From Escherichia coli (GTDB lineage Bacteria > Pseudomonadota > Gammaproteobacteria > Enterobacterales > Enterobacteriaceae): a stretch of DNA of 64,000 nucleotides. The notes under the pieces are model-generated. The model saw only the letters and a list, made by a program, of their open reading frames with translations. It was not told the origin of the DNA and ran no database searches. Numbering within the stretch: the stretch's first letter is position 1; every line of letters begins with the position of its first letter. Below are positions 61,995 through 62,181 of this stretch, one piece after another. The translations under genes and the position numbers were made by a program. The stretch is from the NCBI RefSeq assembly GCF_003334315.1, contig NZ_QOWR01000006.1. One strand, written 5' to 3'.

Positions 61995-62181
61995 GGGCTC
62001 CTTTTAGTTGCAAAGGTTGTGCTGAATCAAGATGAAAAGAGGCAACTTATTGCTCTGAATATAGTGCGTAAGGAGATGAATAAATATCAAAAATCGCTCA
62101 ATATGCCTGTGTGGGTGGATATATGTAGCGCGGGTTGCGATAACAGGGCAAGTTTCGCCCTGTTTTTAATAATAAGCAGAG

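Follow-up and report, generated by a model that had tools for sequence, protein, structure and literature searches.

Background

In a classical bidirectional terminator, an A-tract precedes the hairpin and a U-tract comes after it, and both strands read a hairpin followed by a U-run. Bidirectional terminators between convergent transcription units were reportedly described by Ju et al. 2019 (SEnd-seq). Canonical intrinsic terminators combine a G+C-rich stem of about 5–14 bp and a loop of 3–8 nt with a U-tract. The suppression of antisense transcription by Rho, NusG, and H-NS is said to have been treated by Peters et al. 2012. In the study of Dar and Sorek 2018 (PMC6061677), the ends of Rho-dependent transcripts lay just past stable stem-loops that have no U-tract and are followed at once by rut sites. 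In AT-rich genes gained by horizontal transfer, Rho, NusG, and H-NS also keep antisense and spurious transcription down (PMC6797219).

Here, we analyzed a hairpin (hairpin 2) of the rbn–elaD spacer in the window, which is the whole stretch of 64,000 nt of Escherichia coli DNA under study. We propose, with a probability of about 0.5, that hairpin 2 is both the protective 3' stem-loop of a Rho-terminated rbn mRNA and a back-up intrinsic terminator on the plus strand that would halt antisense read-through. Relative to MG1655, the window is reverse-complemented (MG1655 coordinate = 2444707 - window coordinate), the published expression data used here are from K-12, and window 61900-62300 is 100% identical to K-12 derivatives.

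Structure of Hairpin 2

The two genes and the hairpin between them are located as follows.

62182..63099, minus strand: rbn (RNase BN); in the rbn sense, 17 nt separate the stop codon (62182-62184) from hairpin 2 downstream
60783..61994, minus strand: elaD (deubiquitinase); 35% G+C compared with 52% in the window, a haplotype-specific segment
62142..62164, both strands: hairpin 2; stem AACAGGGC/GCCCTGTT, with a 7-nt loop on the plus strand
62163..62167, plus strand: T5 run directly 3' of the G-C core; in the rbn sense it is an A5 upstream of hairpin 2

The spacer is 187 nt long, with rbn upstream of elaD. On the plus strand, hairpin 2 reads acagggc (62143-62149), aagtttc (62150-56), and gccctgt (62157-63), followed by tttt (62164-67) and aa, and the T5 run therefore takes in the final base of the stem. 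Sequence, stem, and T5 run on the plus strand are all as the initial annotation had described them. An extra A-T pair (62142/62164) gives an 8-bp stem with five G-C pairs and leaves three unpaired U. The plus strand folds at about -12.8 kcal/mol (z -5.1; none of 200 shuffles equaled it), and the minus strand at -14.6 kcal/mol (z -5.9) with 10 pairs and a 3-nt loop. In the 8 nt past the G-C core, the plus strand has TTTTTAAT with six T and the minus strand TTATCGCA with three, which agrees with the earlier remark that the minus-strand hairpin is followed by only tta.

Like a canonical intrinsic terminator, the plus strand thus has a G+C-rich stem of 7–8 bp, a loop of 7 nt, and UUUUU, with stem and loop inside the usual ranges and the U-tract present but short; the minus strand has no such tract. 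Hairpin 2 differs from the canonical case in that it ends no annotated plus-strand gene, that its U-run is short, that no 3' end has been mapped there, and that its target would be a noncoding antisense RNA mostly ended earlier by Rho. A stricter terminator scan does not list the site, because four of the eight bases beyond the maximal stem are T. The plus strand is therefore a canonical but short-tailed terminator motif; the term "textbook" used at first is somewhat generous for a five-U tail that the stricter scan passes over. Since the U-run is short (five U, two of which can pair with upstream A), termination on the plus strand may be inefficient.

The comparison with bidirectional terminators leads to a similar distinction. 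Hairpin 2 resembles them in lying at the meeting point of two transcripts, the rbn mRNA and the antisense-elaD RNA. However, the 5' flank on the plus strand is GCGATA, so the minus-strand tail is UAUCGC, and hairpin 2 is not a bidirectional terminator in the classical sense: the U-run is on one strand only, the other strand relies on Rho, and one of the two units is an antisense RNA.

Hairpin-plus-T Motifs in the Window

The 64-kb window was scanned for perfect 7-bp stems with at least four G/C, a loop of 3–8 nt, and at least four T in the next 5 nt. We found nine strand-specific sites at seven loci, while only 0.48 sites (maximum 4) were expected from 100 first-order Markov simulations; the motif was about 20 times commoner than by chance. 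Six of the seven loci lie 4–79 nt past the stop of a same-strand ORF, and hairpin 2 is the only one that does not trail a same-strand gene stop. Because the six other loci follow same-strand ORF stops, the orientation puzzle raised in the initial annotation, a plus-strand terminator between two minus-strand genes, is genuine.

The rbn-Sense Strand and Rho

In the rbn sense, hairpin 2 is followed by an untranslated tract of unusual composition.

62064..62141, minus strand: candidate rut tract, untranslated, C-rich and G-poor, directly downstream of hairpin 2 in the rbn sense

This tract has 24 C and 10 G in 78 nt, which ranks at the 99.4th percentile when all 78-nt windows of the two strands are compared. 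Adams et al. 2021 (PMC7815308, Supplementary file 2) place the peak of an "orphan" Rho termination region at MG1655 2382642(+), that is, window 62065 (-), 77 nt past the stem. Without bicyclomycin (-BCM), 57 reads were counted upstream and 31 downstream; with it (+BCM), 46 and 81 (Rho score 3.24, p 5e-5; PMC7815308). The score indicates, at a coarse resolution, that read-through in the rbn sense rises when Rho is inhibited, the published Rho calls resting on 800-nt counting windows (PMC7815308). Since the +BCM reads on the sense strand were more numerous downstream than upstream, bicyclomycin may also de-repress the elaD promoter.

Thus, the rbn-sense strand has the two features described for Rho-dependent transcripts, a stem-loop without a U-tract near the stop codon and a C-rich, G-poor untranslated region downstream. 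The likeness to the protective stem-loops of Dar and Sorek (PMC6061677) extends to the stability of the loop past the stop and to the bicyclomycin-sensitive region that follows; unlike them, hairpin 2 has a U-tract on the opposite strand and is a candidate, rather than a mapped, rbn 3' end. The Term-seq tables of PMC7815308 list no steady-state rbn mRNA 3' end at the base of the stem-loop. Based on the missing U-tract, the C-rich tract, and the published Rho region, rbn is apparently ended by Rho downstream, with hairpin 2 as a 3' cap, and hairpin 2 most likely functions as the protective 3' stem-loop of a Rho-dependent rbn terminator. The initial annotation had suggested that the hairpin may terminate rbn poorly in reverse, which comes close to this evidence: no U-tract is present on that strand, and the C-rich tract and the Rho region at window 62065 would supply another way to end the transcript.

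Natural variation gives a weak hint in the same direction. The commonest stem variant, G62157A, was present in 239–247 genomes. It makes a C-A mismatch in the plus-strand RNA (-12.9 to -8.6 kcal/mol) and a G-U wobble in the minus-strand RNA (-14.6 to -12.0 kcal/mol), which hints weakly that the rbn-sense RNA may be the constrained one, a single evolutionary event being counted here. No compensatory covariation was found in hairpin 2, whose conservation is near-invariance within one species.

The Plus Strand and the Antisense-elaD RNA

No plus-strand ORF ends upstream of hairpin 2; an antisense-elaD RNA heads there, and its mapped Rho end lies 200 nt earlier. The candidate elements of this RNA are inside elaD.

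61616-61644 and 61722-61751, plus strand: two sigma-70-like sites, candidate origins of the antisense RNA
61800..61877, plus strand: candidate rut tract of the antisense RNA (20 C, 7 G; 99.7th percentile)

The total of sigma-70-like sites in the region is no greater than in shuffled sequences. The published Rho region antisense to elaD peaks at MG1655 2382764(-), which corresponds to window 61943 (+) (PMC7815308, Supplementary file 2), about 200 nt before hairpin 2. Reads were 274 upstream and 21 downstream -BCM, and 503 and 139 +BCM (Rho score 3.6, p 7.6e-9; PMC7815308). The 274 reads of the antisense upstream window (61143-61943, inside elaD) compare with 57 upstream in the rbn sense, counted over a window that takes in most of rbn, both in MG1655; most of yfbK is deleted in the window strain, which possibly alters plus-strand transcription into elaD. 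So, an antisense-elaD RNA more abundant than the rbn mRNA heads toward hairpin 2, the sole canonically oriented terminator motif at the rbn–elaD locus. The suggestion that the hairpin ends a plus-strand transcript antisense to elaD is therefore half sustained: the antisense RNA exists (274 reads), but Rho ends it about 200 nt before the hairpin.

When Rho is inhibited, the downstream/upstream ratio of this RNA is 139/503 = 0.28, which equals the part of the counting window before the T-run (224/800 nt); this ratio is consistent with a stop at hairpin 2, and ratios elsewhere in the table range widely. In three growth conditions, Term-seq gave no 3' end in MG1655 23825xx for either strand (Supplementary files 1 and 3 of PMC7815308), where low expression could hide one, and none is assigned to rbn, elaD, or elaA in the three conditions (PMC7815308). 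Further published supplementary tables hold no relevant mapped-end entry for the locus. Therefore, the actual use of either face of hairpin 2 is unproven.

The surroundings agree with the Rho/NusG/H-NS silencing of foreign DNA in that elaD has 35% G+C, is haplotype-specific, gives a Rho-limited antisense RNA, and has an internal sense-strand Rho site. Hairpin 2 itself is different, since it is not a Rho site but the motif of an intrinsic terminator, placed at the border of the AT-rich segment.

Distribution and Origin of Hairpin 2

Of 5426 complete E. coli genomes, 4489 had a single copy of the 41-mer containing hairpin 2 (62128-62168), which was identical in 4111; the neighboring 41-mer had matches in only 1423. 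In 13 aligned strains the T5 run was invariant, the stem core and loop were almost invariant, and both flanks were variable, including the bases just past T5 (62169, 62172, 62173, and 62175). Hairpin 2 is confined to the haplotype that carries elaD, a segment of 36% G+C in a window of 52%. About 940–980 complete E. coli genomes have neither elaD nor hairpin 2: the hairpin 41-mer is absent from 937, and 979 lack most of 61900-62300, including the 5' end of elaD. The elaD segment is also absent from E. albertii and a cryptic Escherichia clade. In the E. coli genomes without elaD, similarity to the window stops at the rbn stop codon.

In O18 (a B2 strain), cryptic-clade Escherichia, and E. albertii, rbn and yfbK are convergent around a different hairpin that the two genes share. 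That hairpin is REP-like in O18 and the cryptic clade, and in E. albertii it is a homologue of a second palindrome of the window, hairpin 1.

60733..60766, both strands: hairpin 1, a perfect 15-bp stem (TTCGACCAGTCAGCA tatt TGCTGACTGGTCGAA) between the yfbK remnant and the elaD stop

After the acquisition of elaD, rbn lost the hairpin it had in common with yfbK, and hairpin 2 fills that position. Hairpin 2 recalls REP/BIME elements as a small intergenic palindrome at a gene end, in a place where elaD-less genomes have a REP-like rbn–yfbK hairpin. Unlike them, it is single-copy (median one place per genome) and has no REP consensus, and we do not class it among them.

The 34 nt adjoining the rbn stop, which include one arm and the loop of hairpin 2, are identical to E. 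albertii at 19 of 34 positions, and none of 5000 shuffles scored as high. This similarity stops inside hairpin 2, which suggests that hairpin 2 may have originated at the border of the haplotype-specific DNA or close to it. The terminal codons of rbn also differ by haplotype (FTVFNV* with elaD, FAVFSI* in B2 and the cryptic clade, FAVFTV* in E. albertii), which places the recombination boundary of the elaD haplotype within the rbn coding sequence. The elaB–nuoK interval is a described structural hotspot in E. coli (PMC13185298), and no terminal repeats were found flanking the elaD segment. Hairpin 2 is kept in two strains that lost elaD sequence. In B2C, an IS1 (3248-4010 of the B2C locus; window ~62129) lies 14 nt away, elaD through yfbO is gone beside it, and rbn is intact; in MS8324, most of elaD is deleted.

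Other origins were considered and rejected. A displaced ancestral yfbK terminator, in its simple form, is contradicted by O18, the cryptic clade, and E. albertii, which have other hairpins there and no hairpin 2; moreover, the homologue of the yfbK hairpin is hairpin 1 (60733-60766), not hairpin 2. A wholesale import of hairpin 2 with elaD is weakened by the 19/34 identity of the rbn flank to E. albertii. An 18-nt motif common with the O18 spacer (62074-62091) scored above 300 of 300 shuffles in one test but was dropped, lacking collinearity with E. albertii and giving a blast E-value of 0.11. In a Pluralibacter locus, the stem pattern recurs by chance within a cheV-like coding region.

A Proposed Two-Faced Hairpin

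According to the reading that we favor, the rbn-sense face would not act as an intrinsic terminator, and RNA polymerase would read through hairpin 2. Rho would load on the untranslated tract 62064-62141 and free the rbn transcript ahead of elaD, and 3'-to-5' exonucleases would trim it back to hairpin 2, which would become the stable 3' end of the rbn mRNA. The plus face with its UUUUU would be a short-tailed intrinsic terminator facing the antisense transcripts through elaD. Most of these would be stopped by Rho near 61943, and those that escape would be stopped at 62163-62167, before a head-on entry into rbn. The structure, conservation, and base composition, together with both transcripts and their Rho dependence, are documented here or in published data; we infer from them that hairpin 2 is the rbn 3' end and that real termination occurs on the plus face.

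A bolder version, which we consider unlikely, makes the plus face a boundary in use between core and foreign genes. When Rho or H-NS silencing is weakened, antisense RNA would cross the elaD RBS and start (61994-62010) and gain a hairpin-stabilized 3' end at 62167. A single 23-nt hairpin, possibly born at the junction, would then have three roles: protecting rbn against head-on transcription, fixing how long an antisense RNA able to repress elaD becomes, and capping the rbn mRNA.

What looked like an annotation oddity, a wrong-way terminator, is explained by known mechanisms, and the arrangement is an ordinary one with little wider consequence. It also offers a candidate example of one hairpin, bordering a horizontally acquired gene, with a different mode of termination on each strand. 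A working plus face would show how a core gene can be protected from the spurious antisense transcription that tends to arise in AT-rich foreign DNA. For annotation, mapped transcripts, antisense RNAs among them, are the standard by which to judge the orientation of a terminator, rather than annotated genes alone.

Alternative Explanations

The most serious competitor, although we hold it to be doubtful, is that hairpin 2 works for rbn alone, as a 3' stem-loop that terminates weakly or not at all, and that the T5 run is incidental to an AT-rich spacer. All of the rbn-sense evidence (the Rho region, the rut-like tract, and the Dar and Sorek pattern) fits this explanation, and the sole common stem variant keeps its pairing in the rbn-sense RNA alone. 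No plus-strand 3' end is reported at hairpin 2. Moreover, AAAAACAG of the window corresponds to GATAACAG in E. albertii, and one or two substitutions in an ancestral flank would thus be enough to give the A5/T5 run. However, the window has about 20 times as many hairpin-plus-T motifs as chance would give, the six other loci of the window are functionally placed, and an abundant antisense transcript does come in. The T5 run is also invariant in the 13 strains while the adjoining bases vary. These points argue for a second face, and the two-faced hairpin is preferred.

It is quite improbable that hairpin 2 is a functionless by-product of recombination at the elaD haplotype, formed by chance at the junction and conserved only through the youth of the haplotype. 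Its restriction to the elaD haplotype, the similarity to the E. albertii rbn flank (19/34, 0/5000 shuffles) that stops inside it, the lack of covariation, and the lack of reported 3' ends at hairpin 2 would all agree with such an origin. Nevertheless, the hairpin 41-mer is far less polymorphic than its neighbor (4111 identical genomes vs at most 1423), the joint presence of hairpin, T-run, and rut-like tract is improbable by chance, and the hairpin was kept where an IS1 insertion or a deletion removed the adjoining elaD.

Hairpin 2 might also be merely the spacer of a sigma-70 promoter of elaD, which must sit somewhere in 61995-62181; we give this very little credence. For a SELEX peak of the RpoD holoenzyme located in the rbn>elaD spacer, the promoter sequence TTAAAA-18-TGTTAT was given (Shimada et al. 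2014, PMC3946193), and it maps to the minus strand at 62169-62140, straddling hairpin 2. But SELEX-chip resolves spacers, not hexamers. The -10 element TGTTAT is without the near-universal A at position 2, the -35 element has 4/6 matches, the spacing is 18 nt, and our scan gave no promoter-like minus-strand site here. A G+C-rich perfect palindrome is no promoter feature, and the stability of the fold would be left unexplained.

Finally, the hairpin could end a dedicated short plus-strand sRNA or small-protein mRNA starting in the region upstream of elaD. The initial annotation had offered an unannotated short transcript of this kind near the elaD 5' end and had asked for a plus-strand promoter upstream of the hairpin. 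Apart from the canonical terminator motif, two sequence features speak for it: a TATAGT hexamer (62060-62065) is invariant in the alignment, and AAGGAG followed by ATG at 62070-62078 opens a 38-codon plus-strand frame (ORF 62076-62192). However, the scan found no promoter-like site on the plus strand in 61995-62142, the TATAGT hexamer being without a usable -35 element, and AAGGAG abuts the ATG with zero spacing. The frame is not conserved, since codon 13 changes from TGG to TGA in O157:H7 and other nonsynonymous changes occur. Hairpin 2 has no Rfam match, and the one match at hairpin 1 is a chance, snoRNA-like one with an E-value of 0.18. Only 21 DirectRNA-seq reads (-BCM) were counted on the antisense strand in the 800 nt containing both the frame and hairpin 2, and no Term-seq 3' end was listed, unlike what would mark an sRNA gene. 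A short sRNA or small protein at hairpin 2 is hence not supported, and we consider it the least probable of these explanations.

A sigma-28 promoter was suggested by the resemblance of GCGATAAC to GCCGATAA and by the presence of that motif and cheV after rbn in other Enterobacteriaceae, but it was rejected: a -35 element is missing, and the motif lies on the strand opposite to the one required.

Hairpin 1 and Neighboring Observations

Hairpin 1 has no U-tract on either strand and is homologous to the yfbK–rbn hairpin of E. albertii. It probably serves both convergent genes, although it is no canonical terminator. Next to it, window 59795-60712 differs from K-12 by two deletions, one of 1558 bp that takes the greater part of yfbK and one of 323 bp within yfbL. 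The remaining yfbL and the 5' part of yfbK are only 80% identical to K-12, both are pseudogenes, and this exact arrangement is common to many E. coli genomes.

Beyond Escherichia, the genomes of Citrobacter, Enterobacter, Pluralibacter, and others have a same-strand GCCGATAAC and a cheV-like gene after rbn (locus positions ~4420-4500), which were lost in Escherichia. The GCCGATAAC motif resembles a sigma-28 -10 element, and a SELEX peak of the RpoF (sigma-28) holoenzyme lies inside E. coli rbn (PMC5493296).

Two copies of the 10-mer GGTTGCGATA, one inside elaD (61692-61701) and one directly upstream of hairpin 2 (62133-62142), are probably due to chance. Inside elaD, near its 3' end, a published Rho region on the sense strand is located at window 60907 (-), MG1655 2383800 + (PMC7815308). 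Its upstream/downstream reads were 165/21 without bicyclomycin and 264/122 with it (PMC7815308), and a sense-strand Rho region of this kind in elaD fits a poorly translated, silenced foreign gene.
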